Of a DNA stretch of 64,000 nt, positions 3,761-63,125 are shown one piece after another. The position numbers and the translations under genes were made by a program. Origin of the DNA: a virus; the IMG/VR virus record IMGVR_UViG_3300010350_000237, positions 1,052 through 65,051 of that record. One strand, given 5' to 3'. A model generated the notes under the pieces. It made no database searches, had not been told where the DNA came from, and saw nothing but the letters and a program-made list of their open reading frames with translations. Positions within the stretch are counted from its first letter, which is position 1, and every line of letters begins with the position of its first letter.

Positions 3761-3829
3761 TAAAAGTTGGGCGTTATAAAAATAAAATTTATCTTTGTAA
3801 GGTCAAACGATAACAGTTAAACAAACGAT
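3761..3829 (+). promoter_or_regulatory. Early promoter + conserved leader, copy 1
   Basis: GTTG(3766)-N20-TATCTTTG(3790), followed by TAAGGTCAAACGATAACAGTTAAACAAACGAT. Confidence 0.85.
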
Positions 3830-3837
3830 CTTAAATT

Positions 3838-4187: not shown

Positions 4188-4256
4188 TAAAGTTTGGGCG
4201 TTATAAAAATTACCTTTAAATTTGTAACGTCAAACGATAACAGTTAAACAAACGAT
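4188..4256 (+). promoter_or_regulatory. Early promoter + conserved leader, copy 2
   Basis: TTTG-N20-TAAATTTG(4217), then TAACGTCAAACGATAACAGTTAAACAAACGAT. Confidence 0.9.
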
Positions 4257-4262
4257 TCACTT

Positions 4263-5263: not shown

Positions 5264-5656
5264 ATGAAAGAAGCGACCGAAATTAAAAACGAACTTACCG
5301 TTTACCACGACGGCGCGTATGGCTATTCCTCCAGGGAAAACGGTCGGTCGACCTGTTACGTCGACTGTCCGTTCTGTAAAGCGACCGTTACCTGTTACGT
5401 CTGGTCTTTGGCAGGGTGCGGGAAAAAATGTCCGACGTGTAACGCATTACTGACGACGTCGACAGCGACGAAGCGTTATAAGATAAAGGAAAGTAAAAAA
5501 TTCAAAGGGAAGTTATCCTGTCCGTCGTCCTGCGGGCCGTCGGATTATTGCCCGGGCGGAAAATGCGATCGACGCGGCTGTTATGAATACGACCCGTCGA
5601 AGTTCAACGTCGTAAAGGCCCGTCTTTCTGTTACTGTCAAAACTAAAAACGGTTAA
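5264..5656 (+). CDS. Cys-rich zinc-ribbon protein
   Basis: CPFC...CGKKCPTC and a second Cys cluster. Confidence 0.7.
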   Translation: MKEATEIKNELTVYHDGAYGYSSRENGRSTCYVDCPFCKATVTCYVWSLAGCGKKCPTCNALLTTSTATKRYKIKESKKFKGKLSCPSSCGPSDYCPGGKCDRRGCYEYDPSKFNVVKARLSVTVKTKNG

Positions 5657-5658
5657 TT

Positions 5659-5937
5659 ATGGCTTGTATCGATTGTAAGTTTTACGTTCCCTCCAGTACC
5701 AGACCAGTCGTCGAACAGGGCGTCGGGTTCCTGTCGTTCAGTTCCGAACCCGTTCCGAAACATTGTTCGAAAGGGTTCGACGATATCTTCGCCCTTTGGT
5801 GGAAAAATAACGGAATGAAACCTGGAGCCGAAGCCAGACTGGACGTTCCCGAATGTTTCGAACAGACAGCGATCGCGGACGTCTTCGACAGCCTTTTTAC
5901 GAATATCGATCGGATAACGAAACTTTTGGAAAGTTGA
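5659..5937 (+). CDS. Hypothetical protein with N-terminal CxxC
   Basis: MACIDCKFY; coupled to the upstream ORF. Confidence 0.65.
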   Translation: MACIDCKFYVPSSTRPVVEQGVGFLSFSSEPVPKHCSKGFDDIFALWWKNNGMKPGAEARLDVPECFEQTAIADVFDSLFTNIDRITKLLES

Positions 5938-5988
5938 AAAAAACCGGATAAATTGCAGCTGTTTTCATTTGGTTTTTGGGGGTTTATG

Positions 5989-6022
5989 ACCCGTTCGACG
6001 AAACTGTCGGGCGGGTTTTTTT
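5989..6022 (+). terminator. Intrinsic terminator
   Basis: ACCCGTTCGAC / GTCGGGCGGGT stem followed by a T run. Confidence 0.8.
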
Positions 6023-6042
6023 ATGCGTTATAAAAATAATCG

Positions 6043-6108
6043 TTTTAAAGTTTGGGCGTTACAAAAATACCCTTTAAATTTGTAACCTCAAACGGTTAAT
6101 AAAACGAT
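6043..6108 (+). promoter_or_regulatory. Early promoter + shortened leader, copy 3
   Basis: TTTG-N20-TAAATTTG(6075), then TAACCTCAAACGGTTAATAAAACGAT. Confidence 0.85.
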
Positions 6109-6114
6109 TTAAAA

Positions 6115-6465
6115 ATGAAAAATTCCTTCGCTTGTACGCTCGCAACCCAGATTTACCGTCAGTCTAAAAAGTCCGATAACCCGATTACCTGGGCGGACGC
6201 TATGTCCTGGGCTTGGCTGATCGTCAATAAAACCGAACAGGTTCTTACCCTGGTAACATTCACGAAAGTAAAAGACGGTTCGATCTGTCGTCGCGTTGTT
6301 TCCGAAAGCATATCGACCTATTATACCCCGAAAGGAACGGGTCGCCCGCTGAAAGAAAACCAGGTTCTGTTCGTCGACCTGGGTAAATATGTCGTCGACG
6401 GTAAGTCTTTCTTAATTTCAACTTATACCGACAAAATCGTAAGCCGGGTAAATCTGGCAGCGTAA
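6115..6465 (+). CDS. SH3-fold / WYL_2 (DUF2693)-like protein
   Basis: AMSWAW...VTFTKVKDGSICRR...GTGRPLKENQVLFVDL resembles the Bacteroidota phage WYL_2 pattern. Confidence 0.5.
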   Translation: MKNSFACTLATQIYRQSKKSDNPITWADAMSWAWLIVNKTEQVLTLVTFTKVKDGSICRRVVSESISTYYTPKGTGRPLKENQVLFVDLGKYVVDGKSFLISTYTDKIVSRVNLAA

Positions 6466-6534
6466 AGAATAAACGGGGTCGATCGTCCTGGTCGACCCTT
6501 CCCTTTCACTTTTTTTAAACGTCAAAATTTAATT

Positions 6535-6810
6535 ATGGCATTTGATTTTTTTAAAAAAACGGCGAATATCGTTCGCGTCGATCAGGAAGATAACGTCGAA
6601 GTTTCTCCAGACTTCCCGTCTGTTCAGAAAGCAAATCACGCGCTGGGCGCTCACCTTGCCGGGAACGGGTCGATCGTACTTAACCAGGACGTAAACGAAC
6701 ACGACGGACGGGTCGTAACAGCGATCGAAAAGTCGGCCTTCGGTTCGCGTACCTGGTTCGAAATCGGTTACGAAGTCCTTCCGTCCGACATTATCCAAAA
6801 CGGGGAATAA
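6535..6810 (+). CDS. Hypothetical protein
   Basis: ORF with A-rich leader. Confidence 0.65.
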   Translation: MAFDFFKKTANIVRVDQEDNVEVSPDFPSVQKANHALGAHLAGNGSIVLNQDVNEHDGRVVTAIEKSAFGSRTWFEIGYEVLPSDIIQNGE

Positions 6811-6868
6811 ACAAAATCTTCAAACCTGGGACGACCGACGCGTTCGGTCGTCCCTCAAATTTTAAAAC

Positions 6869-7096
6869 GTGAATAATCAAAGAAGAAAGAAAATAGCGAA
6901 ACTTATCGAACGTCTGGAAGACATTATTTCCGAACTGGAGGAACTGAAAGAAGAAGAACAGGAATCCTTCGACAACCTTCCAGAATCGATTCAGGAATCC
7001 GAACGCGGCGAATCAATGGAAACCGCGATTCAGGAACTGGAAGAAGCCCTGGATAACACGCAAAACGCTGTCGATAACCTTCAAAATATAGAATAA
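6869..7096 (+). CDS. Conserved acidic coiled-coil phage protein
   Basis: MNNQRRK...EEQESFDNLPESIQESERGE pattern. Confidence 0.75.
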   Translation: MNNQRRKKIAKLIERLEDIISELEELKEEEQESFDNLPESIQESERGESMETAIQELEEALDNTQNAVDNLQNIE

Positions 7097-7680
7097 TGAA
7101 CCAGGTACTTAATTCAGATAATACGACGATCATTCAAAAACGCGAAGACGGGTATTACGTCGAACGCTGCGGTATCGGTAAATTCTTCCCGATCAGCGAA
7201 CGCGTCGACTGGAAAACCTGTCGCGATCTGGCCGACGCTTTTGCTGCACGTCTGGAAGTCTTTACGTCGGTATCGATGAGCCTTTCGGAATGGAAGATTA
7301 CGTTCTGGGCTCTGAAACAGATCGTCGATAAGGTCGAAAAAGACTTCCCTTACGAAGGGGTCGAAGGATTCGCCGAAGGCGACTTTACTTACTTCGCCGA
7401 TCTTTCGAACCAGACGATCGGCGTCCAGTTCGGCGCCCTTATCGTTTACCTTTCGAACAGTAAATCGGAGGCGGGAAAATTCCAGTATATCGTCGAAATA
7501 ATTACCGGGTACCTTCCGAAGAAAACGACGGTCGTCTGTTCTGGAGTATCAGCCGAAACGGTCGTCGCGATCGTCAGAAATTCGCCCCGTTCCCAGTCAT
7601 ATAAAGAACCCTTTTTTAAACAGCTGTTCTTTTCTCCGGCGAATATGGATTTTTTTAATTCTGTCCGCCTGACTGATTAA
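7096..7680 (+). CDS. Hypothetical protein
   Basis: TAATG-coupled ORF. Confidence 0.7.
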   Translation: MNQVLNSDNTTIIQKREDGYYVERCGIGKFFPISERVDWKTCRDLADAFAARLEVFTSVSMSLSEWKITFWALKQIVDKVEKDFPYEGVEGFAEGDFTYFADLSNQTIGVQFGALIVYLSNSKSEAGKFQYIVEIITGYLPKKTTVVCSGVSAETVVAIVRNSPRSQSYKEPFFKQLFFSPANMDFFNSVRLTD

Positions 7681-7700
7681 AATAACGTTATATTTGCAAC

Positions 7701-8021
7701 GTGAACGGGAACTTCGATATCAGAAAGAAAGAAGATCGTAACCTGGTCGCCAAACTTCGAAATACGGTTTCAGACTTGAATTTTTACTGTTACCGGTTCC
7801 TGGTTCGCGCCGGTTACGAATCTTCGCCCAGGACGGGAATAAAGGACGGCGAAAATTTGATCGCGAAGGGCGACAGGGTTCCGCCCCAGGTATGCGAAAT
7901 AATCCTTAGGTATTACATAATTCTGGAGTATTCAGAACCCCGAAACGCGAACGACTTTTTTTACGAAACCTGGATTTACTTACACGAATACGATAAAATT
8001 CTTAACGATGCAATTTTCTAA
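7701..8021 (+). CDS. Hypothetical protein
   Basis: GTG-start ORF filling the gap. Confidence 0.6.
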   Translation: MNGNFDIRKKEDRNLVAKLRNTVSDLNFYCYRFLVRAGYESSPRTGIKDGENLIAKGDRVPPQVCEIILRYYIILEYSEPRNANDFFYETWIYLHEYDKILNDAIF

Positions 8022-8460
8022 AAATCAAAAGTTAATCGACCCGGCGGAATCGACCCGTCGGCAGCACGCAATACCGGAAGACGTACACAAATTCGCGCTT
8101 ACGGCACAGATCGAATTTAAGGGCGATCGCGGTCGCGGTCGGGGTAACGTTCCGACCTTACCAGACATTTATTACGCGCTTACGAAAGAAGGGTTCCAGT
8201 TACTGGCGGACGGTCGGATTAAAGACCCGAAGTTCGTCGAAGTCGGTCGTCCTGACGGCTGCGTTTTCGCCCAGATCGTCTTCGAAGAAACCTTCGATAA
8301 ACAACTTCGCGAACTCAAAGAAGCGGCCGAAGACGGGGTTTTCCCGATTGAACCTTACAAAGAAATCAGTCTTATTTCGCTGGCGGTTAACCTTATTCGG
8401 TACGCTATCGACGCCCGCGAAAACCCGAAAAAATACCCGAAGAAACGGTCGAAAAAGTAA
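8008..8460 (+). CDS. Hypothetical protein
   Basis: Overlapping co-oriented ORF. Confidence 0.65.
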   Translation: MQFSKNQKLIDPAESTRRQHAIPEDVHKFALTAQIEFKGDRGRGRGNVPTLPDIYYALTKEGFQLLADGRIKDPKFVEVGRPDGCVFAQIVFEETFDKQLRELKEAAEDGVFPIEPYKEISLISLAVNLIRYAIDARENPKKYPKKRSKK

Positions 8461-8511
8461 CTTCGACCTTCCGTTATATTCCTTCAATTTCTTAACTTTA
8501 AAACGTCAATT

Positions 8512-9543
8512 ATGGCAGAACAGTTAAAAACGATTCAGACAGTCGAACCGCAAATCGAAGCCCTTTCGCCGTTATACCTGGACGATCAGTTCGGGAAGAA
8601 CGTCGAACGTATCGCTTCGCAAAAGGTCTTTCGGGTTAATATCGGCGCTGGCCGACATTACCGGAACGAAGCGGGCGAAACCTTCAAAAGTATAACGACC
8701 TTCCTTTCCCAGACAATGCCGCCGAATAAGTTCCTTAATACCTGGAGGGAAAACAAAATCGAAGAACTGGGTTCGGTCGACGCGGCTTACGAATTTGTTC
8801 AATCGACGGCCGATTACGGTACCGGGTTACATATTGCCGTCGCTGACTTTTGTCGGAACGGGTTCGTCGACTGGGTCGAATTTGAAACCTTCGTTTACGA
8901 ATACCTTATGTCGGTAGGGTTCACAAATTCGACCCTTCATTCGGCGGCGCGTGAACTGGTAAACGACTTCGCTTCGATGCTGGCTTTTGTTCACCAATAC
9001 GAAGTTAAAATCCTGGCGGTCGAAATTCCGGTTTTCAGTTCTGACGGATTCGCGACCCTGGTCGACCTGGTCGTCGAAATGAACGCTTTAAATTACACCG
9101 ACAAAACACCGGCGGACAAAAGACAGCGAATCCGGGCGATCGTAAACCTTAAATCTGGGAAGAAGGGGTTCTTCGAAAGTCACGTCTTCCAGCTTATCGG
9201 AGAACGTCGGGCGTTTAACGAAACCTATTCCCAGACCTGCGGTTTCCAGATCGAAGAAGTCTTTAACCTTGCCCCGTCGGACTGGAGGAAAGAACCGACT
9301 TTTAAACTGGCGCGACAAACGAAGCCGATCGTCGAACGGGGCCTGGACGAAGAATTTGATCTTTACGTTCAGGTCGGGAAGAAAAAAGGAATCCTGGGTC
9401 GTCCGACGAAACAGTTCCCTTTATTTACTGGAGTAACGAAGTTCGGAGGGAACCCGACCGAACAGCTTCAAATTTTGGATTACGAACAGTACGCCGTTAT
9501 TCGTCTGGGCGCCCTTGCCGGTAAGGACGAAGACGCGGAATAA
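8512..9543 (+). CDS. PD-(D/E)xK exonuclease-like recombination protein (variant active site)
   Basis: SITTFL..GTGLH..VEIPV..ATLVDL..IVNLKSG..QL motif order. Confidence 0.7.
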   Translation: MAEQLKTIQTVEPQIEALSPLYLDDQFGKNVERIASQKVFRVNIGAGRHYRNEAGETFKSITTFLSQTMPPNKFLNTWRENKIEELGSVDAAYEFVQSTADYGTGLHIAVADFCRNGFVDWVEFETFVYEYLMSVGFTNSTLHSAARELVNDFASMLAFVHQYEVKILAVEIPVFSSDGFATLVDLVVEMNALNYTDKTPADKRQRIRAIVNLKSGKKGFFESHVFQLIGERRAFNETYSQTCGFQIEEVFNLAPSDWRKEPTFKLARQTKPIVERGLDEEFDLYVQVGKKKGILGRPTKQFPLFTGVTKFGGNPTEQLQILDYEQYAVIRLGALAGKDEDAE

Positions 9544-9588
9544 TTACGATTTTCAACCTTTAACGCTTTACTTTAAAACGCTTTTATT

Positions 9589-10581
9589 ATGGCAGAAAAG
9601 ACAAATCAAACCGCAACCCAGAACCCGTTCGGAGCCCCCGACAAAGGCGATCTTCCAGTCGAAAGGACGAATTACCCGATCGTCGAATACGGGACAATGA
9701 AAACCCCGGCGAACCTGGTTAAACACATTACGAAAGCAATGATCGACGAAGCGATCGCGACGAATAAACTGGGCTTTTCATACTGGGACAAAGACCAGGG
9801 CCTTCGGGTACATTTGGGCGATAAATTTACCTTCGTCGTCCTGGAGGTTTACAGTCAAATTTCGGGACAGAAAGAAATCGGCCCGAAGACCTTCGAACGT
9901 TATTACTCAAACAAAGTAAAGGATTCCAGGTCGGAACCCTTCGCGATCTTCCGACAGGGCGATAAACCCAGGAAGCCGATCGAAAAGGGACTTTACCAGG
10001 ATTTAAAAGGCGACGAAAAGAAAGGTATTCCGTCCAGGATTCCGAAGGGCTGTTCGTTTCACCTGGTTTTCGTCGTTTACTGGCTGGAGGGTAACCGTCT
10101 TCTTAATTTGAAAGGTTCCGTTATGGTATCGAACCAGATTAAAGAAGCGATCGTCGCCGCCGAACGCGGAACCGGACGGTCGAAAAAGACTTCTGACGTA
10201 AGTCTTTTCGGGCTTGCCGATACCGGCAGTCTTTGGGGCTTTCAGTTCAAAACATACCGTCGGGTTACGAAAGAAGGCGACGAATACAAAGGGTCGGGCG
10301 ACTGTTATTTCGTTCCTGACTTTTACGCTGGCGTCGTAAAGAACGAAGGGCCGAACGCGAACCCAGACCTTTACGCGATCTGTAAATCGCACCAGGACGA
10401 CGTCCGTCTTCAATACGAACAAATGATCGAACGCCGGAAGAAGTACGGCGACGAAACTCTGGAAGGAACCGACGACGACGATACTGGAGAAACTTCGATC
10501 GACCAGGAAACCGACGCCCGGTTCCCGACTGACGAACAGACAGCACCGCCGCCGGCGTCTGGCGACGACTTACCTTTTTAA
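9589..10581 (+). CDS. Putative ssDNA-binding/annealing protein
   Basis: Acidic tail ending DDLPF; lies next to the exonuclease. Confidence 0.6.
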   Translation: MAEKTNQTATQNPFGAPDKGDLPVERTNYPIVEYGTMKTPANLVKHITKAMIDEAIATNKLGFSYWDKDQGLRVHLGDKFTFVVLEVYSQISGQKEIGPKTFERYYSNKVKDSRSEPFAIFRQGDKPRKPIEKGLYQDLKGDEKKGIPSRIPKGCSFHLVFVVYWLEGNRLLNLKGSVMVSNQIKEAIVAAERGTGRSKKTSDVSLFGLADTGSLWGFQFKTYRRVTKEGDEYKGSGDCYFVPDFYAGVVKNEGPNANPDLYAICKSHQDDVRLQYEQMIERRKKYGDETLEGTDDDDTGETSIDQETDARFPTDEQTAPPPASGDDLPF

Positions 10582-10592
10582 CCTTCCCAGGT

Positions 10593-11213
10593 ATGAAAGA
10601 CCAGGTTATTATTAAAGCCGAATCTTTCGTCGATCGGGAAGGACTTCTTCGGCTGCCGCGTGAACTTTTGAAGGGCGCGGCAGTCTTTTCCGGTAAACCT
10701 GTTATTATATCAGTCGAAGAAAAACTTCCCTTTCGGACGTTAGACCAAAACGCGTATTACTTCGCCGCGATCGTCCGTCCGATTACGGACTTCTTTATCG
10801 AACACGGCGAACCGTTTAACGAACAGATCGTTCACGACATTTTAAAGACGAAGTTCCTGGGCGTTTATCGTCAGTACCCAGGGTCTTCGGAAGTCGAACT
10901 TCTTTACGTCCGATCGTCGTCGTCGTTAAAGGTGTTCGAATTCTCTTTTTATATCGAAGACTGTATTCGTTACGCGGCCGAAGACCTGGAACTGGTTATC
11001 GAACCGCCCAGGAAGTCCAGGGCCGAATTTTCCTTCCTGGAGTACCCGAAAGAAGGGGAAAGTCGAAAACGTTACCTGAATCGAATTACTGGGTACGTCG
11101 AAGACATTACCAGGAAGGAAGACGTTCTTCGATACTTCGAACAGAACGACGACTGGAGGGAAGACGCCGATATTAAGTCGATCTTCCGAAAAAGGTACGA
11201 CGCTATCGCTTAA
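10593..11213 (+). CDS. NinB-like recombination protein
   Basis: RTLDQNAYYFA...VHDILK...SSSLKVFEFSFYIE..IRYAAE. Confidence 0.7.
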   Translation: MKDQVIIKAESFVDREGLLRLPRELLKGAAVFSGKPVIISVEEKLPFRTLDQNAYYFAAIVRPITDFFIEHGEPFNEQIVHDILKTKFLGVYRQYPGSSEVELLYVRSSSSLKVFEFSFYIEDCIRYAAEDLELVIEPPRKSRAEFSFLEYPKEGESRKRYLNRITGYVEDITRKEDVLRYFEQNDDWREDADIKSIFRKRYDAIA

Positions 11214-11234
11214 AAACGCCGGATTTATGTTAAC

Positions 11235-11272
11235 GGGCGGACTTTCGTAAAAAAAAGTTCGCCCTTCTTTTT
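11235..11272 (+). terminator. Intrinsic terminator
   Basis: GGGCGGACTT / AAGTTCGCCC stem followed by TTCTTTTT. Confidence 0.8.
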
Positions 11273-11335
11273 GTCGTTATTAAAATCCCGCCTAAATTTG
11301 TAACGTCAAACAATAACAGTTAATTTAAACGATTC
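11270..11335 (+). promoter_or_regulatory. Early promoter + conserved leader, copy 4
   Basis: TTTG(11270)-N19-TAAATTTG(11293), then TAACGTCAAACAATAACAGTTAATTTAAACGAT. Confidence 0.85.
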
Positions 11336-11339
11336 GAAA

Positions 11340-12401
11340 ATGTCATTACCGAAAGAAATTACCGTCGGACAACTTCGCGAAGAACTGAAATATCGGAGCC
11401 GCGAAGCGATGAACAAAAACTGGACGTTCGTCTTCGCTGGCGAAATCCTTCCCGAAGAACATATTAACGTGCCGTTCGATCAGGCGCTGGAATTTGTCGG
11501 GCAAATCGCTATTCCCCAAAAAGGAAGACCCGGTTCGATTACTGGGGCCGCTCAAAGACTTTTAAAAGCCTGGAAGGAACCCGTACCGGCTGAAACCTGG
11601 GAAGATTACCTGGAGGAACCGAAAGAAGACGTTCACCCGATCGAAGCCGTTCTTCGTTCCGTCGAACAGGATAAAGCGAAGAATAACGGGTTTACTCCAG
11701 TCGTACCAGGTACCGAAAAGACCTTCCAGGAAGTCGTCGAAGAAAAGAATAAAGGACAGGAACCAGGGGTTCCCGATTCGCTGGTCTGGTACCGGGTCGA
11801 ACTGGAAAAGGTTCGAAAGCAGATCGGAGAACTTTCGCACGAAGAAATTACCGGAAAGAAGGGCGCCGAACTTTTGAAAAAGTCGCGATTCCTGGAAATG
11901 AAGATCGCGTTATCGGAGAAACCAAAAAAGTCGACCTGGGAAAAGGTCGTCGACTTCTTCGCTTCGCTTACTGGTCTGGACTGGGTTTATCTGGTTACCG
12001 TCGGAATCGCCGATTACGGACTTATTGTCCTTCTTAAAGAAATGGGACTGGCGGCTGGCGTTGTTTATACCCTTATTTCGTTTCACGCTCTGGCGATGGC
12101 TCGAAGTCGGAAGTCCCAGGTTACCGCCTCCAGGGGTATCGTCGCGGTCTGGTTACTTGAATTACTGGCCTTCTTCGTTCACCTGACTTTATTTAACCGT
12201 CGTTTGTGGGGTTCGATTAACGAACTTCCTTTTAACGTTACCGAAGACCTGGGCGACGAATACCGTCCTTTTTTGATCGCGGTAATACTGGCGGTTCTGT
12301 TCAGCGCGGCGGGAATTTACGCGGTATCGACGACGCTGGCACTTTTGAAGGAACGAATCGACGCCGAAGAATACGAACTGGAACACGGAAAACAGTATTA
12401 A
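11340..12401 (+). CDS. Membrane protein (soluble N-terminus, coiled coil, about 4 C-terminal TM helices)
   Basis: Hydrophobic stretches in the last 150 aa. Confidence 0.75.
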   Translation: MSLPKEITVGQLREELKYRSREAMNKNWTFVFAGEILPEEHINVPFDQALEFVGQIAIPQKGRPGSITGAAQRLLKAWKEPVPAETWEDYLEEPKEDVHPIEAVLRSVEQDKAKNNGFTPVVPGTEKTFQEVVEEKNKGQEPGVPDSLVWYRVELEKVRKQIGELSHEEITGKKGAELLKKSRFLEMKIALSEKPKKSTWEKVVDFFASLTGLDWVYLVTVGIADYGLIVLLKEMGLAAGVVYTLISFHALAMARSRKSQVTASRGIVAVWLLELLAFFVHLTLFNRRLWGSINELPFNVTEDLGDEYRPFLIAVILAVLFSAAGIYAVSTTLALLKERIDAEEYELEHGKQY

Positions 12402-12413
12402 ACCGTCGACGAT

Positions 12414-12800
12414 ATGGATAACGCGATTATCGTTCCAGGCCCGAAGTTCGACGAAATGATCGAAAAGATCAGCTGTCAAAGTATCGCCGAAGGGAAGAAC
12501 AGCCCGACGGTAAAGTTCGGAGGAAAGACGTTCGTAATTACTTCGGCGGCTGGTACCGGAACCGGTTATTACTGGGAATCCGTCGGCGGTTACGAAGTTG
12601 TTCCCGAAGCCCTTTACCTGGGCGACCTGGTACCAATGAAGTACCAGGTTCACTTCGGGGCGGTTCTGGACGGTAAACGTCCGCGATCGTATAACGGTCT
12701 TCTTCTTACGGCTGACGGTAAACCTTTCGTTTGTATCGGCGAAAAAATCAGTTTTAAACCCAGTCTGGAGGGAAAGCAAATCGACCTTTTCAAAGATTAA
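12414..12800 (+). CDS. Hypothetical protein
   Basis: Co-oriented ORF. Confidence 0.7.
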   Translation: MDNAIIVPGPKFDEMIEKISCQSIAEGKNSPTVKFGGKTFVITSAAGTGTGYYWESVGGYEVVPEALYLGDLVPMKYQVHFGAVLDGKRPRSYNGLLLTADGKPFVCIGEKISFKPSLEGKQIDLFKD

Positions 12801-12812
12801 AATAACGTCAAA

Positions 12813-13109
12813 ATGGAAAATAACAAAAAAGAAGATTCGCTGGAATGGCGCGTTCACCCGTCCAGACTTTTCGAAGAAATTATTACCGGTACGCCGGGCG
12901 GCGCGATTTTAAAAAACCCTTTAACGATACTTTGGGAAATCCTTCGAAAGGTCGGAAAACGCGCTTCGGAACTTAACGACCCGGAACTTAACGCGTTAAT
13001 GTGCCGACTGTCGGTTTACGCGATCGCGAACCCAGACGAACAGGATTATAACCCGGAACTTACGGAAGAAATAATCGAAATCGCCAAAGCTTTAAAGGGT
13101 AAAGAATGA
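12813..13109 (+). CDS. Hypothetical protein
   Basis: Preceded by TAACGTCAAA. Confidence 0.7.
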   Translation: MENNKKEDSLEWRVHPSRLFEEIITGTPGGAILKNPLTILWEILRKVGKRASELNDPELNALMCRLSVYAIANPDEQDYNPELTEEIIEIAKALKGKE

Positions 13110-13687
13110 AACGTTTTATTCAGTTCATAACGACCCAGACGTCGTTCTTTCGTCAGTTCCTGGCGGGCGACATTCTTCCCAGTCTGGAGGAATACGGAAT
13201 CGAAGAACGACCCAGACGTAACGTCCAGGTAAAAGAAGACAGACGCGCCGAAGGTAAGGTCGTCTTCGGTACCGAATACGTTACCAGGAAATCGGACAAA
13301 GACCCGAACGTCGTCGAAACTGTCCAGGCGAATCGTCCGCCGGAATCGTCGACCGAAGTCGTCCTGGACGAATACGATATCGCGTACCTGGACGACGTCG
13401 TCGGTACAAAATGGCGTAAATCGGAGGGCCGGGCGAAGGTTATAAAATGGTTCTGGTTAAAGCGTTTATCGGCCGCCCAGATCGAACAGGAAAAGACCGA
13501 TAAGAAGACGAAAAAACTGGAAACCGGATTTTCCGAACGGACGGTCGCCGATTACATAAAAGCGTATTACGACGCCGACGACGCAAGGGCCGAAAAGGGG
13601 AAACCCAGACAGCGCGAAAGTCGATTCGTCGAAACGATCGGGAAGGAAGAAGAACCGGAAAGTAAAGAACACGTCGTCGAATGGTAA
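13106..13687 (+). CDS. Hypothetical protein, possible C-terminal HTH
   Basis: LSAAQIE...GFSERTVADYIKAY. Confidence 0.6.
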   Translation: MKRFIQFITTQTSFFRQFLAGDILPSLEEYGIEERPRRNVQVKEDRRAEGKVVFGTEYVTRKSDKDPNVVETVQANRPPESSTEVVLDEYDIAYLDDVVGTKWRKSEGRAKVIKWFWLKRLSAAQIEQEKTDKKTKKLETGFSERTVADYIKAYYDADDARAEKGKPRQRESRFVETIGKEEEPESKEHVVEW

Positions 13688-13731
13688 CGCCCCCCTATCG
13701 ACCAGAATCCCAGAATCCGTTTTTTGTATGT

Positions 13732-13830
13732 AATTCGGTGCAAACTTTTTTTGCACCCGTGAAAATCAGCCAGTTATAACAAAAAAATCGCACCGCCGAA
13801 AATGCAATTAAGGTGCAATTCGGTGCGAAA
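13732..13830. promoter_or_regulatory. Operator-like GGTGC/GCACC array
   Basis: GGTGCAAA-N5-TTTGCACC (13737-13757) plus half-sites at 13790, 13812 and 13822. Confidence 0.55.
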
Positions 13831-13842
13831 AAACCCGCGAAT

Positions 13843-14631
13843 ATGGAAAATTTAGTTTTAGAAGATCGGAAGGTCGGAACCGAAACGACGGGAAAGACGA
13901 CCTTCGAAAAGTATAACCCCGACGTCGCTGGAGTAACGAAAGAAGTAAACGGCTTAACCCTGGTCTGGGACGAAGGGGTCGAACTGTTTGTTCTTCCAGT
14001 CGGTAAGAAGTCGCCGTTCCAGATCATATTCGACGAACCGTCTGGACAGCTTATCCAGGTTCAGAACGCCGACTTTATTTATCGCGATCGGAGGGCTGAA
14101 AGTCCAGACGGAACCAAAATCCAGGAACGGGTTTTTATCGGTCGGATTCCGAAGAAAAAACCAGGGACGACCGATATCGACTTCGAAGAAATATTCCTTC
14201 CAGACCCTGACGTCCAGAAAGCGATTATTCGGGCGAAAGTCCTGGAGTTAAAGAAGGTATTTATCGAACACTTACTGGCAGTAAACCGGTTATTCCTGGT
14301 CGGTTCTGTCGTATCGATCGTCTTCTTCTTTTGGTACCTGATTACCGGACTGGATATCCTGGCCGCTGCGCTGACGATCGGCGCGGCTCCGGCGCTGGGC
14401 GAAGTTGGTTACCTTCTTGTTTGGGGCGTCGGTCTGGTCGGACTGGGATTCCTGGCGAAATACACCGTTCCGGCTCTTTTACGTCGGAGGAATACAGACG
14501 CGGAATACGAAACCGAATACGCTGGTCGGGAATCGGCCCAGAACACGACGATAAACGTAAACGTTAACCAGGGTAACCGGACGTCGGGCGATAACGGCGC
14601 CCAGGGTTACGTTAATAATCGGCAGTTATGA
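13843..14631 (+). CDS. Membrane protein (2-3 TM helices)
   Basis: ATG at 13843 preferred to the track's GTG at 13813; hydrophobic C-terminal half. Confidence 0.7.
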   Translation: MENLVLEDRKVGTETTGKTTFEKYNPDVAGVTKEVNGLTLVWDEGVELFVLPVGKKSPFQIIFDEPSGQLIQVQNADFIYRDRRAESPDGTKIQERVFIGRIPKKKPGTTDIDFEEIFLPDPDVQKAIIRAKVLELKKVFIEHLLAVNRLFLVGSVVSIVFFFWYLITGLDILAAALTIGAAPALGEVGYLLVWGVGLVGLGFLAKYTVPALLRRRNTDAEYETEYAGRESAQNTTINVNVNQGNRTSGDNGAQGYVNNRQL

Positions 14632-15221
14632 ACCTACAAATCGAACTCGAACACGCCGAACAGTCTTCGTTCTGGTTCACCTTTAAAGCGGGTAACGCCT
14701 TCGTCGCGTTGTTCTTCTTTATCCTGATCGGGAACGAACATACTGTCTTCGGATTCCTGGGGCTTGCCCTCCAGACGATCTTCCTTTTTGTACGGGTTCC
14801 GGTACTTATCGAAAAGTTCGAACACCGTTTAAAGATCGTAACCTTTAAAACACAGATCGAAAACCTTTACGTCTGTTCGATATACGAAGGACAGGAAGAC
14901 GACCTGGTCGTCGACACGTTTAACCGGACGGTCGAACTTCTTCGTCAGTCTGGGAATAACCACGAAGTCCGGGTTCACCTGCTTTTGTTTCGGGACGTTA
15001 AGACCTTTACCTGGTTCTTCGATAGTTCTGGAAAGTTGGTAAAGACGAACGACTGGAGGAAAGAAGGGTCTTCTTTCGAAACCTGGGAAGAATACCAGGA
15101 ATTCGTCGAAGACTTCAAAAGAACCGATCGCGATAAAAGACTTCGACAACTTCGAAAAGATAACGCCGGCTTCGACTGGGTTAACGAAAACGTTTTCGGA
15201 CAATGGCAAAGCGAAGCGTAA
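14628..15221 (+). CDS. Membrane protein (2 N-terminal TM helices)
   Basis: ATGA overlap; hydrophobic N-terminus. Confidence 0.7.
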   Translation: MNLQIELEHAEQSSFWFTFKAGNAFVALFFFILIGNEHTVFGFLGLALQTIFLFVRVPVLIEKFEHRLKIVTFKTQIENLYVCSIYEGQEDDLVVDTFNRTVELLRQSGNNHEVRVHLLLFRDVKTFTWFFDSSGKLVKTNDWRKEGSSFETWEEYQEFVEDFKRTDRDKRLRQLRKDNAGFDWVNENVFGQWQSEA

Positions 15222-15763
15222 AAAGGAAGACTGGACACAAAAGCCAGACGCGAATCCTGGGTAAAACATTTAATTACCTTATGGCTAACTTCCCGTTATT
15301 CTTTATAACGAAGTTCGGTATCAGCGACACGACAAAGAAACGGGTAAAGAGCGTCGACGAAACGACGCCCGGGTCGGTCTTCCTTTTAATGTCCGCCGAA
15401 CTTTTATACGGGTACCAGGCCGAACAGTTTGTTCATTCGCTTTACTGCCTGCAGAACTGGTATAATATACTTCGGACGGTCGGACTGGGTCGTCTTTGGC
15501 AGGGCTCCGGGCATACCGAATGGTTCCTTAACTTTTCGCCGATCGTCGGAATATCTGTCGCGTACCTGAATTACCGGTTTCACCTGGGACTTATACCCGA
15601 AGACTTCTTTTACTCCAGGTACGAACGGCTGGCGCTGTTCTTCTTTACTCCGATCTTTTGGCTGGACGGTATTTTGTGGCTGTTATTCTTTCGCGTCCTT
15701 CGCGCTGTCCTGGGCTTCGCCGTTATTTTTTTAATCGCTTATTTAGTTGTCAAATCGAAATAA
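15203..15763 (+). CDS. T5orf172/GIY-YIG-like domain fused to C-terminal TM helices
   Basis: TKFGISDTTKKRV...AEQFVHSLY...GSGHTEWF, then hydrophobic helices. Confidence 0.6.
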   Translation: MAKRSVKRKTGHKSQTRILGKTFNYLMANFPLFFITKFGISDTTKKRVKSVDETTPGSVFLLMSAELLYGYQAEQFVHSLYCLQNWYNILRTVGLGRLWQGSGHTEWFLNFSPIVGISVAYLNYRFHLGLIPEDFFYSRYERLALFFFTPIFWLDGILWLLFFRVLRAVLGFAVIFLIAYLVVKSK

Positions 15764-15777
15764 GTCGGCGATATTTG
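15746..15777 (+). promoter_or_regulatory. Putative promoter of the candidate sRNA
   Basis: GTTG(15746)-N20-GATATTTG(15770); same spacing as copies 1 and 5, one mismatch to TAnnTTTG. Confidence 0.5.
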
Positions 15778-15781
15778 CGGT

Positions 15782-15855
15782 ACTGAATTCGTTTATTAAC
15801 TGTTATTCAAGTTTTGACGTTAACGGCATCCGCGACCCGGCTGCCGTTTTTTTTT
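15782..15855 (+). ncRNA. Candidate trans-acting antisense sRNA against the shared early leader
   Basis: Contains the reverse complement of the leader blocks; ends in an AACGGCA/TGCCGTT hairpin + T9; no ORF. Confidence 0.55.
15822..15855 (+). terminator. Intrinsic terminator
   Basis: AACGGCA-T-CCG-loop-CGG-C-TGCCGTT, T9 at 15847-15855. Confidence 0.8.
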
Positions 15856-15864
15856 GTCCGTAGA

Positions 15865-15896
15865 TTTGCCCCTGATCGCAAAACCCGTTATATTTA
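15865..15896 (+). promoter_or_regulatory. Promoter of the replication operon
   Basis: TTTG(15865)-N20-TATATTTA(15889). Confidence 0.55.
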
Positions 15897-15930
15897 CCCC
15901 GTCAAAATCTTTTAAACGAATTCTGTATTT

Positions 15931-16791
15931 ATGAACGACTTACCATTTACGCACGTTTACGAACGCGCACGTCGGAAGATGAGGTTAAGCCGCGACGAAT
16001 ACGCCCTGGTTAATTATGTTCATACCTGGGCAGGTTACCCTGGAGGTTCGCGCCCAGGCTGGTGCGATCGAACCCTTTCACAAAAAGCGGCGTTTATCGG
16101 AGTTACCGAACGGGGTCTTACGAAGATGCAAAACCGAATGATCGACGCGACCCTTATCGAAAAAGACCCGCTTACTTCACACGTCAGGGCGACGAAAGTC
16201 TGGTTTGAAATTATCCACGACGCGAAGGTCGAAGAATCCAAAAAGGCGACCTTACTGAAGGAACAAAGTTCCGTTAATGACAGGGAACAAAGTTCCTCAA
16301 AAACAGGGAACAAAGTTCCTCAAAACGGGGAACAAAGTTCCGTTAATCCCTGGAACAAAGTTCCTATACATAATAAAGGGTTTTTATTTAACCCTATGGA
16401 ATCAGATAAAGAAGATATTATCGAAATCGAAAGTCCAGTCGAAACGATCGTCGGTCTTCTTAATCGGTTAACTGGTTCTTCATTCAGGACGAAGACGGAA
16501 GGAACGATTAAAGCGATTAACGCCCGACTTTCTGACAAGTACACGGTCGACGATATTTTACTGGTCGTCGAATACAAGGTCGAAGACTGGATTAACGACC
16601 CGGAAATGTCGAAGTATCTCCAGCCGTCGACCCTTTTCCGTCCCTCACATTTCGAAAATTATTTCCAGGCTGCCCAAAAATGGAAAGCAGCCGGAAAACC
16701 TAAAATAGTAAAAAATGGAAAGTTCCCTTCAAGTAATAACGGGCGGGTCGGCGCTGACGTTAAAGAAAGCACTTCCGGCGCTTTTAACTGA
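15931..16791 (+). CDS. Replication initiator (lambda O-like; Phg_2220_C-like C-terminal domain)
   Basis: N-terminal wHTH-like region; LNRLTGSSFR...WINDPEMSKYLQPSTLFRPSHFENYF; internal iterons. Confidence 0.85.
   Translation: MNDLPFTHVYERARRKMRLSRDEYALVNYVHTWAGYPGGSRPGWCDRTLSQKAAFIGVTERGLTKMQNRMIDATLIEKDPLTSHVRATKVWFEIIHDAKVEESKKATLLKEQSSVNDREQSSSKTGNKVPQNGEQSSVNPWNKVPIHNKGFLFNPMESDKEDIIEIESPVETIVGLLNRLTGSSFRTKTEGTIKAINARLSDKYTVDDILLVVEYKVEDWINDPEMSKYLQPSTLFRPSHFENYFQAAQKWKAAGKPKIVKNGKFPSSNNGRVGADVKESTSGAFN
16260..16400. repeat. Replication origin: five GGAACAAAGTTCC iterons followed by an AT-rich tract
   Basis: Copies at 16260, 16284, 16307, 16329, 16352 (spacing 22-24 bp); hyphenated dyad GGAAC-AAA-GTTCC. 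Confidence 0.85.
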
Positions 16792-24349: not shown

Positions 24350-24418
24350 TTAAAAGTTGGGCGTTATAAAAATCGTCCTTAAATTTGTAACGTCAAACGA
24401 TAACAGTTAAACAAACGT
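24350..24418 (+). promoter_or_regulatory. Early promoter + conserved leader, copy 5
   Basis: GTTG-N20-TAAATTTG(24380), then TAACGTCAAACGATAACAGTTAAACAAACG. Confidence 0.9.
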
Positions 24419-24425
24419 TCAGAAA

Positions 24426-25738: not shown

Positions 25739-25816
25739 TTTGTCGATTCGAAAAAGACCGTTACGTTTGTAACGTCAAATTTAAACAGTTAACAGTTTCA
25801 CCAAAACGAATTCATT
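25739..25816 (+). promoter_or_regulatory. Early promoter + variant leader, copy 6
   Basis: TTTG(25739)-N19-TACGTTTG(25762), then TAACGTCAAA..ACAGTTAA..AAACGAATTC. Confidence 0.8.
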
Positions 25817-57200: not shown

Positions 57201-60200
57201 ATGAAACGAATTTTCCAGATCGCGTTTTTCCTGTCAATTTCGCCGACGTTTTTATTTTCCCAGGCGATCGTTAAAGGTTCGGGCATTGTTTACACGAACG
57301 GAGCCCCGACGCACAGTATCGACATAAATACGGACGCCGAAGTCGCTATCGATACCGCGTCCGGTTACTGGTACGAAAGAAGTCGCGACGGGGCTGGCTG
57401 GATTTTGGCCGGTTTCCGTATTCAGTTACTGGCGGGGTCTTCGGCACCTTCCGGGGCTCCAGCCGACAAAGAATCCGAAGTCGTCGTTAACGACGTCGAT
57501 TCCCTTTATCGATGGCGTTCCGGGGCCTGGCGCCACTTAAACAAAGTCGTTACTTATACGGCTGGGACTGGTATAAATATTACGTCCGGTAATGTTATCG
57601 AAAATACCGGCGATCTGTCGGATTCGAACGAAGGAATCCTGGGCGTCGGCGCTGGAGGGGCCACGTCTTCGACCCTTACCAGTAATACGTCCGGCGCTGC
57701 CGGGGTAACAATAAACGCGGCCGGTATTCTGTCGATCAGCGAAACGACGTCGACGAATGGCGGGTCGATTACGATTACCGGTACCGAAGTCGACGGTTCA
57801 GTAACGAACGAAGGAACCCTGGGCGTCGGCGCTGGAGGGGCCACGTCTTCGACGCTTCTTTCCAATACGTCAGGCGCGACAGGGGTAACGGTAAACGTCG
57901 CCGGTATTTTATCGATCAGCGAATCGACGTCGGCGAATGGCGGTTCGATTACGATTACCGGTACCGAAGTCGACGGGTCGGTAACGAATGAACTCCAGAC
58001 GATCGCCAATACGTCAGACGCGACCAGTCATACGGTCACGCTTTCAAACTCTGGCGGTTCTGTCCAACTGGTCGAAGGTGCGAACGTAACCTTAACGACG
58101 ACGGGTACGGGTTCCGATGGAATCGTTACGATCGCGGCTTCGTCTGGAGGCGGGGCCGATCTTTCGTATTCTGGAGCATCGTCGCCCGTAACCCTGGCAA
58201 GTTCGACAGGAACCGACGTAACTTTTACGGAAGGGGGAATCGTTACGATAACGGCTTCGTCGTCGAACCTGACGATCAGCGCGACCGAAGTCGACGGTTC
58301 GGTAACGAACGAAGCCTGGACGATAGACGCGGACGACGCCGATACCGAAGTTATCAGTAACCAGACGGTAAAATTTGAAGGGGCCGGTATAACGACGACC
58401 GATTATAACCCAGCGACCGACGTTCTGTTAATCACTTCGACCGAAGTCGACGGTTCGGTAACGAATGAACTCCAGACGATCGCCAATACGTCAGACGCGA
58501 CCAGTCATACGGTCACGCTTTCGAATTCTGGCGGGTCGGTACAACTGGTCGAAGGGTCAAACATAACCCTAACGACGACCGGTACCGGGTCGGACGGAAT
58601 CGTTACGATCGCGTCGACTGGAGGGGGGACGACCGATCTTTCTTATACTGGGTCGACTTCGCCGGTAACCCTGGCAAGTTCGACAGGTAACGACGTAACG
58701 ATAACGGAAGGGGGAATCGTTACGATAACGGCGACTTCTTCGAACCTGACGATCAGCGCGACCGAAGTCGATGGTTCAGTTACGAATGAACTCCAGACGA
58801 TCGCCAATACTTCGGACGCGACCAGTCATACGGTCACGCTTTCAAACTCCGGCGGTTCTGTTCAACTGGTCGAAGGTGCGAACGTAACCTTAACGACGAC
58901 GGGTACGGGTTCCGACGGAATCGTTACGATCGCGGCGACGTCTGGAGGCGGAACCGATCTTTCGTATTCTGGAGCATCGTCGCCGGTTACCCTGGTAAGT
59001 TCTTCGGGTAACGACGTAACCTTTACCGAAAGCGGAATCGTTACAATAACGGCGACTTCTTCGAACCTGACGATCAGCGCGACCGAAGTCGATGGTTCAA
59101 TAACGAACGAAGGAATCCTGGGCGTCGGCGCTGGAGGGGCGACGTCTTCGACAATCATTACGAACACGTCGACCGGGAACGACGTAACTGTAAACGTCGG
59201 CGGTATTTTATCGATCAGCGAATCGACGTCGACGAACGGCGGGTCGATAACGATTACCGGTACGGAAGTCGACGGTTCGGTAACGAATGAACTCCAAACG
59301 ATCGCCAATACGTCAGACGCGACCAGTCACACGGTAACCCTGTCTTCTTCGGGCGGGTCGATTCAATTCGTCGAAGGGGCAAACGTTACGCTTACGACGA
59401 CGGGTACGGGTTCCGACGGAATCGTTACGATCGCGGCGACGTCTGGAGGCGGAACCGATCTTTCGTATTCTGGAGCATCGTCGCCGGTTACCCTGGTAAG
59501 TTCTTCGGGTAACGACGTAACCTTTACCGAAAGCGGAATCGTTACGATAACAGCGACGTCGTCGAACCTGACGATCAGCGCGACCGAAGTCGACGGTTCG
59601 GTAACGAATGAACTCCAGACCCTGGCGAATACTTCGGACGCGACCAGTCATACGGTCACGCTTTCGAATTCGGGCGGGTCGGTACAACTGGTCGAAGGGT
59701 CAAACGTAACCCTAACGACGACCGGTACGGGTTCCGATGGGATTGTTACGATCGCGTCGACCGAAGTCGACGGTTCGATTACAAACGAAGGAATCCTGGG
59801 CGTCGGCGCTGGAGGGGCAACGTCGTCGACCCTGACGACAAACACGTCGACAGGTAACGACGTAACGGTAAACGTCGCCGGTATTTTATCGATCAGCGAA
59901 TCGACGTCTTCGAACGGCGGGTCGATTACGATTACCGGAACCGAAGTCGACGGGTCGGTAACAAACGAACTCCAGACCCTGGCGAACACTTCAAACGCGA
60001 CCAGTCATACGGTCACGCTTTCAAACTCCGGCGGTTCTGTTCAACTGGTCGAAGGCGCGAATGTAACCCTAACGACGACCGGTACCGGGTCGGACGGAAT
60101 CGTTACGATCGCCGCGACGTCTGGAGGCGGGGCCGATCTTTCCTTTACTGGGTCGACTTCGCCGGTTACTCTGAACAGTTCGACCGGAACCGACGTAACC

Positions 60201-61895: not shown

Positions 61896-62827
61896 CAACG
61901 GCGCTTTTATTCGTCGTCGGGTCTTTGTTTGGGCAGTTTACCGGTAACGGCGTTATCGGAGTTATCGCGTCGTCGATTCAGGTCGGAGGGTCAACGTTTA
62001 CGGGATTACTGGACACGGTACCGGACGCCGGATTCTTTTATTCGTTACGTCGTGTAAATAGTGCTTATACCGGCGATCTTTTGACCGTTAGACGTGCAAG
62101 CGACGACGCCGAACAGTCGATCGGTTACGTCGCCGATACCTTAGATCGGGCGTCAATAGAAAGTTTTTGTTCTGGAACGACCTGTTACGTTCCACTTTGG
62201 AACGATCAGTCTGGAAACGGACGGGACGCGCTGGGCTGGAACGAATCGACGACAAACGATAACCTTCCGATTATAGTAAACGCCGGAACGACGGTAACGC
62301 TTAACGGACGAATCGCGATTTATTGTCCTCATCCCAGGGCCTTTTTTTGGACGGACGCGTCGACAGATATCAGCGACTTAATTACTGCCGTCGGAGGCGG
62401 AGGCGGAACGAAGGCCGGTACGGCTCACGTCGTCGGGTATGTCGGGTCGACGCCGACCGACCCTTATTTATTTGCGCTGAACGACCCAGGGGGCGACGAA
62501 TATTGGTGGCTTTATTCTGACGGAAACGCCAGAATCGAATTTAATAGTACGGCTGCAAGTATGGGCGCCGACATAACCCGCGACGCGCAAACAATTTGGT
62601 GCGGACGGGTAACAGGAACGACGTTCGAAGTCTTCGAAAACGGTTCTTCGATCGGTTCTTCGACGAACGGTTCGTCCCAGACTTCGACGACGACCGAAGT
62701 CGAATTTAAGTTCGGAGGCGGGTCGTTTTCCAGTCGAACGATCGACGGTTATTACCAGGAAATCGGTTCCTGGAAAACGTCGGAAAATGTTACGACCCTT
62801 TATAATTCCGCGAATGCTTACTGGTAA
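61865..62827 (+). CDS. Signal-peptide LamG/ConA-like (arabinofuranosidase-catalytic-domain-like) protein
   Basis: ...VVGSLFG|QF; YSLRRVNSAYTG....VRRASD; WNDQSGNGRDA. Confidence 0.7.
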   Translation: MAFIWRHFKLTTALLFVVGSLFGQFTGNGVIGVIASSIQVGGSTFTGLLDTVPDAGFFYSLRRVNSAYTGDLLTVRRASDDAEQSIGYVADTLDRASIESFCSGTTCYVPLWNDQSGNGRDALGWNESTTNDNLPIIVNAGTTVTLNGRIAIYCPHPRAFFWTDASTDISDLITAVGGGGGTKAGTAHVVGYVGSTPTDPYLFALNDPGGDEYWWLYSDGNARIEFNSTAASMGADITRDAQTIWCGRVTGTTFEVFENGSSIGSSTNGSSQTSTTTEVEFKFGGGSFSSRTIDGYYQEIGSWKTSENVTTLYNSANAYW

Positions 62828-62839
62828 AAACTTTGTTTT

Positions 62840-63118
62840 ATGATAGTTCACAAACGTAAAAGCACAAACAAATTATTTGTTTTATGGTATGTCCAGAACG
62901 AAAAAGGCGTACCAGGGGAACCGACGATCTGGTTCTGGCCTTTGAAGACTTCCCGTCTGGGAATCTTTAATTCGCGACTGACGATCGACGATAAAGCCGA
63001 CCCGGTATCGTTCCCGAAAAGTAAAGTCGACGGTCTGTTCGACGAAATCGATATAAAACTTCCTTCCCTTCCGACGATACCAGGTATCGAACTTCCGAAG
63101 AAAACAGAAATCGAATAA
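62840..63118 (+). CDS. Hypothetical protein
   Basis: Co-oriented ORF. Confidence 0.65.
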   Translation: MIVHKRKSTNKLFVLWYVQNEKGVPGEPTIWFWPLKTSRLGIFNSRLTIDDKADPVSFPKSKVDGLFDEIDIKLPSLPTIPGIELPKKTEIE

Positions 63119-63125
63119 TTATCGA

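Follow-up and report, generated by a model that had tools for sequence, protein, structure and literature searches.

Locus and Anatomy of the Element

The DNA considered here is a stretch of 64,000 nucleotides (nt), called the window and always meant at its full length, which covers most of the IMG/VR entry IMGVR_UViG_3300010350_000237, a viral record of 65,174 bases and 96% completeness derived from activated-sludge metagenomes. Our subject is a small intergenic element, a candidate anti-leader RNA, situated in a 167-nt gap between a gene of 186 amino acids (aa; 15203-15763, + strand) and a replication-initiator gene (15931-16791, + strand). The former, taken from the list of open reading frames (ORFs), is the last gene of an early operon begun at the 11270 promoter; it has no PHROG or Pfam match, and its synteny is retained in all relatives described below. 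The latter has been recognized by its domain and PHROG matches (Phg_2220_C, phrog_428). All called genes of the window are carried by the + strand, the calls themselves being crude (ATG-started ORFs of at least 50 aa). As no strong terminator has been found between 11340 and 15763 and all genes share one strand, + strand RNA is expected over the element even if its own promoter-like box is silent; the mRNA of the 186-aa gene should continue through the element up to its terminator. A single 4.5-kb transcript from 11340 to the element would follow from the same lack of strong terminators.

The promoters of the window are of the Bacteroidota type and consist of TTG, 19-20 nt, and then TAnnTTTG, a box that occupies positions -12 to -5 in flavobacteria (PMC9723704); the transcript starts given below have been predicted by this rule. 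Shine-Dalgarno (SD) motifs have been found at 4 of 79 genes, which is under the background level, and in the start regions of the whole window A makes up 62-67% of positions -13 to -11 but only 6% of position -7, where T reaches 48%; positions -4/-3 are A-rich once more. The absence of SD motifs and the A-rich start regions agree with the initiation pattern of Bacteroidetes, in which mRNA structure and a few upstream adenines tune initiation (PMC6847099).

The element opens with a promoter-like box of this Bacteroidota type on the + strand (15746-15777), composed of (G)TTG, a 20-nt spacer and GATATTTG, which overlaps the stop codon of the upstream gene (15761-15763). According to the rule that TAnnTTTG lies at -12 to -5 (PMC9723704), an RNA started by this box would begin at 15782, and with the fold this predicts a + strand RNA of ~74 nt (15782-15855) made of an unpaired anti-leader body (15784-15818), a terminator hairpin, and a U-run. 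Three blocks can be distinguished ahead of the hairpin, all named for what they complement in the leaders of early mRNAs. Block 1 (GAATTCGTTTA, 15785-15795) complements an AAACGA(A)TTC block located ~6 to 17 nt before start codons, block 2 (TTAACTGTTATT, 15796-15807) complements the central ATAACAGTTAA block of early leaders, and block 3 (TTTTGACGTTA, 15812-15822) complements the first transcribed leader bases, GUCAAA. The intrinsic terminator (15822-15855) has been predicted by folding to consist of a 7+3 bp hairpin at 15822-15848 and T9 at 15847-15855, and the fold of the 75-nt RNA has an energy of -18.2 kcal/mol (z = -2.9). An initial annotation of this locus, made from the letters alone, had proposed a multi-target antisense RNA on the basis of the three blocks, including a 12/12 match of block 2 at 11312, of GTTG-N20-GATATTTG upstream at 15746-15777, and of a hairpin with T9 downstream; each of these features has been located again at the same coordinates.

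The same annotation had described the segment as free of ORFs, and no ORF of at least 40 aa lies wholly within 15764-15930. A minus-strand promoter-like site has not been found near 15700-16000, and the window has no minus-strand genes. With neither a promoter on that strand nor an ORF fully inside the element, a minus-strand transcript and a small protein have been rejected as candidates. Antitermination has been dropped as a role because the leader pairing reaches only the first base of the terminator stem. Screening against Rfam has given no credible match for the element, a relative, or the whole window; no family's gathering score is attained at any point of the window, and the matches obtained at E-values up to 10 are weak chance ones only.

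A Leader Shared by Early Transcripts and Its Inverted Copy

Six strong promoters (3766, 4193, 6051, 11270, 24356, and 25739; repeat family D11) are followed by a near-identical leader, which confirms the six early promoters with a shared leader that had been annotated. The leader has the pattern TAAC-GTCAAAC-(G/A)ATAACAGTTAA-...-AAACGA(A)TTC-...-ATG, and GTCAAA is found at 3802, 4229, 11305, 24392, and 25774, as the start rule predicts. By the TAnnTTTG rule (PMC9723704), the first base of the leader transcripts would thus be the G of GTCAAA.

The minus-strand sequence of 15782-15825 reproduces this leader in full, with the three blocks in the proper order. An exact reverse complement of block 1 exists at a single site, 15913-15923, which belongs to the leader of the following gene, and block 2 is complementary in 12/12 positions to 11312-11323 and in 11/12 positions to sites at 3809, 4236, and 24399. 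Block 3 complements TAACGTCAAAA, a motif present with zero or one mismatch at 4225, 6517, 11301, 12803, 24388, and 25770; it has 11 matches, compared to 3.6 expected, and this count has been reached by none of 100 shuffles. Local alignment of the reverse complement of 15782-15825 with the window has matched leaders or start regions with scores of 40, 36, 34, 34, 29, 29, and 28, the best of them for the leader of gene 11340, while the best scores of 40 shuffled queries have had a mean of 23.3 and a maximum of 31. The short motif ACGTCAA is found nine times on the + strand; seven of these copies precede a start codon by no more than 45 nt, where 0.5 would be expected, and its reverse complement has a single + strand occurrence, which lies in the element. 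The complementarity ends 0-4 nt from the position where transcription is predicted to start, and the -7 box is never part of it; being limited to the transcribed part, it fits an RNA rather than a promoter cassette.

Leader-like motifs (AACGTCAA, AACGGTTAA) have also been observed directly before operon-internal start codons at 6517-6527, 8502-8509, 12803-12813, and 5631-5660, and no clear promoter has been found at these sites. Among them are the seeds before ATG codons that had been annotated at 12803-12813, 6518-6527, and 8502-8509. At 8501-8540 the full three-block pattern covers both the start codon of gene 8512 and the first codons that follow.

Pairing Energetics and Predicted Targets

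Raw duplex energy slid over the whole + strand has turned out to be unspecific, with some GC-rich coding windows at -30 to -36 kcal/mol, and therefore net binding energy on start regions has been used instead. It has been calculated as the cofold energy minus the energies of the two separate folds, for the 75-nt RNA against positions -45 to +15 of 81 genes. Ranks 1-5 of the 81 are held by leaders, at -24.0 to -16.5 kcal/mol, compared to a median of -5.2 kcal/mol for all 81. These predicted targets, all on the + strand, are the leaders of gene 4263 (4229-4262; net -24.0 kcal/mol, 29 bp from +1), gene 11340, which opens the operon ending at the element (11305-11339; -23.9 kcal/mol, 30 bp), gene 24426 (24392-24425; -21.3 kcal/mol, 29 bp), gene 25817, which carries a perfect AAACGAATTC block (25774-25816; -20.9 kcal/mol, 25 bp), and gene 3838 (3802-3837; -16.5 kcal/mol, 28 bp). 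When the targets are begun at the predicted +1, the five leaders form 25-30 bp at about -18 to -20 kcal/mol, and the duplexes span the first mRNA nucleotide to a few bases before the AUG, with the terminator still folded.

The specificity of this ranking has been assessed by dinucleotide-preserving shuffles of the seed, none of which (0/60) reaches the mean of the top seven (-19.3 vs. -11.2 kcal/mol), so that the enrichment of pairing energy on the leaders, called for in the initial annotation, has been recovered. Its figure of about ten targets is generous. Five leaders do pair strongly, whereas pairing is moderate for the shortened leader of gene 6115 (6087-6114, + strand; -12.3 kcal/mol, 20 bp) and for the initiator leader, which has a net energy of -12.5 kcal/mol (rank 8 of 81) and, from +1 and in trans, -14.4 kcal/mol with 21 bp; the three internal seeds are weak.

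Conservation and Co-variation in Related Phages

A search with the initiator protein has found many relatives, and 12 of them, distinct metagenomic contigs (L002-L010, L014-L016), have been used, which together with the window make 13 genomes. The initiator proteins of these relatives are 46-80% identical to that of the window. At the DNA level, no relatives have been obtained via a phage database, two single-protein scans of viral contigs, or a scan for the leader pattern, and scans for the initiator-promoter pattern have yielded only two chance matches (L011, L013) and L012, a duplicate of L009.

Gene order and intergenic design are the same in 13/13 genomes, in the common order TTTG box, blocks (GA)ATTCGTTT and TTGAC, hairpin with T7-T9, initiator promoter, and leader. 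The TTTG of the box just past the stop codon is invariant (13/13), a TTG is found 20 nt upstream in 12/13, and the position-weight promoter score of the box lies in the 99.8-99.97th percentile of background in all 13 genomes. Conservation is seen in the blocks ahead of the hairpin, which are mostly unpaired, but not in the adjacent spacer or in the sequence of the terminator stem: TTGAC of block 3 is invariant in 13/13 genomes, AATTCGTT of block 1 is kept in the eight short-type genomes, and block 2 is kept by close relatives. A strong hairpin followed by T7-T9 is present in every relative, with a stem sequence that is different each time and altered by compensatory changes. Two length types have been found, a short one of ~75 nt (window, L002, L014, L003-L006, L015) and a long one of ~110-123 nt (L007-L010, L016) with an extra GC-rich 5′ hairpin that differs in sequence in each genome, which would make sense for an RNA and not for an operator.

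Conserved unpaired blocks, a variable hairpin, and a U-run are, as far as sequence can tell, the usual signature of a base-pairing small RNA (sRNA), and the element combines two of the features by which such RNAs are recognized, namely a Rho-independent 3′ terminator, kept in all 13 genomes with compensatory changes, and a conserved, largely unpaired seed complementary to mRNA start regions. The sRNA-like element of the initial annotation is thus supported in silico by its conserved box, its conserved unpaired leader complement, and its intrinsic terminator. A diverged relative has further been observed in run X4 (2025 wastewater) over 5755-16000, with most pieces less than 99% alike; its small indels at 15805, 15873, and 15925-15926 fall in the anti-leader, the spacer, and the initiator leader.

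Anti-leader and leaders have been found to change together. In the long-type clade (L007-L010, L016) the leaders are without AACAGTTAA and carry GTCAAATTGATTAAACAA, and the anti-leader there reads TTGTTTATCATTTGAC. When the anti-leader is read as its reverse complement, CCGTCAATTTG is common to anti-leader and initiator leader in L003, and five A's are common to the two in L004; the anti-leaders of L006 and L010 fit their own operon leader far better than the leaders of other genomes. A cross-genome matrix of duplex energies has given p = 0.0003, a value confounded by clade structure, and the test has therefore been repeated within clades by alignment score. With partners permuted within clades, cognate alignments exceed non-cognate ones both for the initiator leader (p = 0.002) and for the leader of the 11340 orthologue (p = 0.005), values that finer relatedness inside the clades may inflate. 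Co-variation in related phages, which the initial annotation had named as a check, has been observed. Predictions for the 12 relatives again put the orthologous operon leader, the initiator leader, or both at the top of the targets; the 11340-leader orthologue ranks first in 7/12 and the initiator leader in 4/12 (L003, L007, L008, L016). The counterpart of gene 25817 in the relatives is a DUF932 gene, and the orthologous leaders of L003, L004, and L005 retain AAACGAATTC.

The Initiator Region and Further Features of the Genome

Downstream of the terminator lie the promoter of the replication-initiator gene (TTTG-N20-TATATTTA, 15865-15896, + strand), nearly invariant in the relatives from its core to the transcript start, and the leader of the initiator mRNA (15901-15930, + strand). 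The 5′ end of this leader, GUCAAAA, and its AAACGAAUUC block complement blocks 3 and 1, and the leader is without the ATAACAGTTAA block that block 2 complements. As complementarity to the element is found in the initiator leader of every genome, and this leader is the best predicted target in 4/12 relatives, the proposal of an early-to-replication switch is doubtful as worded; the RNA would also damp the initiator, or act on it in cis.

The stretch from the initiator promoter core through the transcript start (CCGTTATATTTACCCCGTCAA, 15883-15903) is nearly invariant in L002-L010 and L014-L016, which, for initiators of 46-80% identity, exceeds what a promoter alone should need. The sequence CGTTATATTT is also present at 7690, 8475, and 32470, and it may be the sign of a distinct class of promoters or the site where a factor binds. 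Within the initiator gene, five direct repeats of approximately GGGAACAAAGTTCC with 22-23 bp spacing (16257-16365, family D17) have been seen, which probably represent the iterons of the replication origin. In the operon that ends at the element, the intergenic segment 13688-13842 contains four copies of GGTGCAA/TTGCACC, forming a perfect inverted repeat and extra half-sites; they are kept in five relatives and have the look of an operator, or of a structured RNA, ahead of gene 13843. Direct repeat families of 147-300 nt, with up to 19 copies, occupy fibre-like genes at 1-960 and 57600-64000.

A Proposed Antisense Anti-Leader RNA and Its Alternatives

The reading that we tentatively favour, as plausible rather than probable, is that the element would act as a same-strand antisense anti-leader RNA, which blocks the translation of leader-bearing mRNAs in a host without SD pairing. 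We infer that the element is transcribed, either as an sRNA of ~74 nt from its own weak promoter-like box, starting at about 15782, or as the 3′-terminal part of the early-operon mRNA begun at the 11270 promoter, and with either origin the RNA would end at the strong terminator (15822-15855). The conserved box suggests an additional own start near 15782. The body of the RNA (15784-15818) would then pair in trans with leaders, from the first base of GUCAAA up to a point a few bases short of the AUG. Genes 11340, 4263, 24426, 25817, and 3838 are predicted to be its strongest partners, and the initiator leader a weaker one. Since a host without SD pairing needs an open A-rich start region, such a duplex should block initiation, and it may also open the mRNA to double-strand cleavage. 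Since the RNA closes an early operon of 4.5 kb and has the leader of that operon among its top partners, the simplest circuit would be a delayed negative feedback on early and initiator gene expression. A bolder form of this reading, which seems rather doubtful to us, takes the element as the single “master anti-leader” RNA of a virulent phage with an SD-less, Bacteroidota-type host; it would duplex the entire 5′ untranslated region (UTR) of all promoter-proximal early and initiator mRNAs as the RNA equivalent of T4 RegA/RegB, the end of the 4.5-kb operon would serve as a delay timer of early shut-off, and the uniform leaders would have been kept as its regulon.

The case for a function is comparative and thermodynamic throughout, and several observations weigh against an anti-leader RNA. 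The box has scores of 2-13, compared to a median of 24 for strong promoters, and would thus be weak or regulated; its TA dinucleotide is without the T in most genomes and also without the A in four of the five long-type ones. Because GTCAAA at +1 also occurs at promoters with very short leaders, this block may be kept for initiation and not for pairing, and since the leaders are mutually homologous, the many targets are not independent evidence. The mismatches between anti-leader and leader comprise 11 G:U-compatible and 18 incompatible transitions, hence no G:U excess, so that nothing specifically favours RNA over DNA pairing, and the co-variation would equally arise from a DNA operator or from gene conversion. 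A simple duplex scan gives coding windows of equal or better raw energy. Finally, the public runs found are DNA only, from activated sludge or wastewater, with no RNA run containing the phage among them.

The complementarity to the adjacent initiator leader allows for a more local function, which we judge unlikely but take seriously. In read-through RNA the initiator leader would be clamped by blocks 1 and 3, so that the initiator is translated only from mRNAs of its own promoter, or the free RNA would act in trans mainly on the initiator, in a copy-control-like manner; the likeness to other leaders would then only reflect that the initiator leader belongs to the leader family. Read-through folds contain 21-33 bp between anti-leader and initiator leader in 12/13 genomes, and that of the window has an energy of -35.8 kcal/mol (z = -3.4), or -38.9 kcal/mol with 25 bp for a start 4 nt earlier; the terminators are strong, however, and read-through should therefore be rare. 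Within the window, block 1 has an exact 11-nt partner in the initiator leader and nowhere else, and the lineage-specific matches of L003 (CCGTCAATTTG) and L004 (five A's) link the anti-leader with the initiator leader, but block 2 (TTAACTGTT) is conserved and yet partnerless in the initiator leaders of the window, L002, L014, and L005, its perfect partner lying in early leaders. Similarly, the ATTCGTTT block of the long type is partnerless in most initiator leaders and partnered in early leaders. The cognate advantage of p = 0.002 and the initiator as top predicted target in L003, L007, L008, and L016 argue for a function at the initiator, as does the precedent of c4 in P1/P7, an antisense RNA that blocks the ribosome-binding site (RBS) region of its target (PMC12197685) and shares an operon with it (PMC8198154); against it, the initiator ranks only 8th of 81 in the window, 24th of 25 in L015, and 13th of 31 in L010, and L010 has a 13-bp match with its own operon leader.

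An element acting at the DNA level appears distinctly unlikely to us. Here the leader blocks would be sites of a phage or host DNA-binding protein, and the inverted copy would regulate the 15746-15777 box or the initiator promoter. The blocks do lie at +1 to ~+35 of each promoter, where repressors typically bind, and in short-type genomes the inverted copy is similarly distant from its own box, whereas a hairpin of ~40 nt stands between box and blocks in the long-type clade, and the blocks are not evenly spaced, the variation being 0-9 bp in the anti-leader and larger in the leaders. TAACAGTTA/TAACTGTTA form a 9-bp near-palindrome, the orientation of which would be indifferent to a dimer, but it is absent from the long-type clade. 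The G:U asymmetry test lends RNA pairing no support, and a clearly operator-like region elsewhere in the operon means that DNA-binding regulators are probably encoded; the restriction of the complementarity to the transcribed part and the leader-like motifs at operon-internal start codons without promoter match speak against an operator. Still less probable is that the element has no dedicated function and descends from an old inverted duplication of the leader cassette in the 3′ UTR, kept alike by gene conversion, with only the terminator under selection. Phage genomes often contain repeated promoter-leader cassettes, which can recombine, and a terminator by itself would account for hairpin and T-run. 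It would not account for blocks that are conserved in 13 genomes whose initiators are 46-80% identical while spacer and stem sequence are not, nor for the conserved TTTG box upstream, and the identical stretches of only 8-13 bp are short for conversion. An invertible promoter switch, finally, deserves hardly any weight. The perfect 11-bp inverted repeats 15785-15795/15913-15923 around a promoter-bearing segment of 117 bp, which includes the terminator and the initiator promoter, would allow inversion, but a single orientation has been found in 13/13 genomes, and contigs of four DNA runs contain no strand-changing joints (weak evidence, as contigs drop rare forms). The 96%-complete genome has no tyrosine or serine recombinase, integrase, or resolvase, and the match to distant leaders would be left unexplained.

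Comparison With Known Systems

For an antisense anti-leader RNA, the closest analogue appears to be the c4 RNA of phages P1 and P7, which lies upstream of its target and to which the CI RNA of satellite phage P4 is related. This c4 is an antisense RNA located in the operon of its target that pairs with the RBS region (Citron and Schuster, 1990, via PMC8198154 and PMC12197685). The likeness consists in a short phage RNA that comes from the same strand and operon as its target and not from the opposite strand, and in short blocks that block the ribosome-binding region of the downstream gene, just as blocks 1 and 3 of the element face the leader of the next gene, the initiator, ~100 nt downstream on the same strand. 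The Rfam C4 model has no match up to E = 10 in 15000-16500 or in L009. The element further differs from c4 in that its complementary bases lie in an unpaired stretch and not in hairpin loops, that it ends at its own terminator whereas c4 is cut from a precursor, and that it has several predicted distant targets. Its phage is without integrase and immunity context, belongs to an SD-less host type, and, with no integrase or resolvase, gives no sign of a temperate lifestyle.

Like sRNAs derived from 3′ ends, the element uses the terminator of the upstream operon, and its box overlaps the end of the upstream coding sequence. A comparable case is icaR of Staphylococcus aureus, where the 3′-UTR pairs with the 5′-UTR on the SD site of one mRNA (PMC3868564). 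As the best-matching leader, that of gene 11340, belongs to the operon of the element, 3′-to-5′ repression of the first gene is possible. In contrast to icaR, the element complements the whole UTR of an mRNA family rather than one SD site.

The RNAs CopA of plasmid R1 and RNAI of ColE2 limit replication initiators and belong to the opposite-strand class of antisense RNAs. In the same class, lambda OOP and P22 sar (PMC12197685) resemble the element as small terminator-ended RNAs complementing the leader or start region of a regulator or initiator. All four come from the strand opposite their target, whereas the element has no minus-strand promoter and its complement is an upstream inverted repeat on the coding strand. 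The comparison with phage T4, in which RegA is a translational repressor and RegB an endoribonuclease (PMC3014915), goes no further than function: in each case a single phage factor would turn off many early mRNAs at their start regions. The T4 factors are proteins, while the element would act by RNA pairing.

Implications

Phage sRNAs are known almost only from enterobacterial phages, and a 2025 review of them makes no mention of Bacteroidota (PMC12197685). If the anti-leader reading is true, the element would be the first candidate family of regulatory RNAs in phages whose hosts initiate translation without SD pairing, and it would provide a simple model of antisense repression under conditions where initiation needs only an open A-rich leader. 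The family of 13 genomes represents a set of natural sequence variants for the design of compensatory mutations. One RNA would govern a whole set of phage mRNAs via their common leader, which may explain why unrelated operons of these phages carry near-identical 5′ UTRs.

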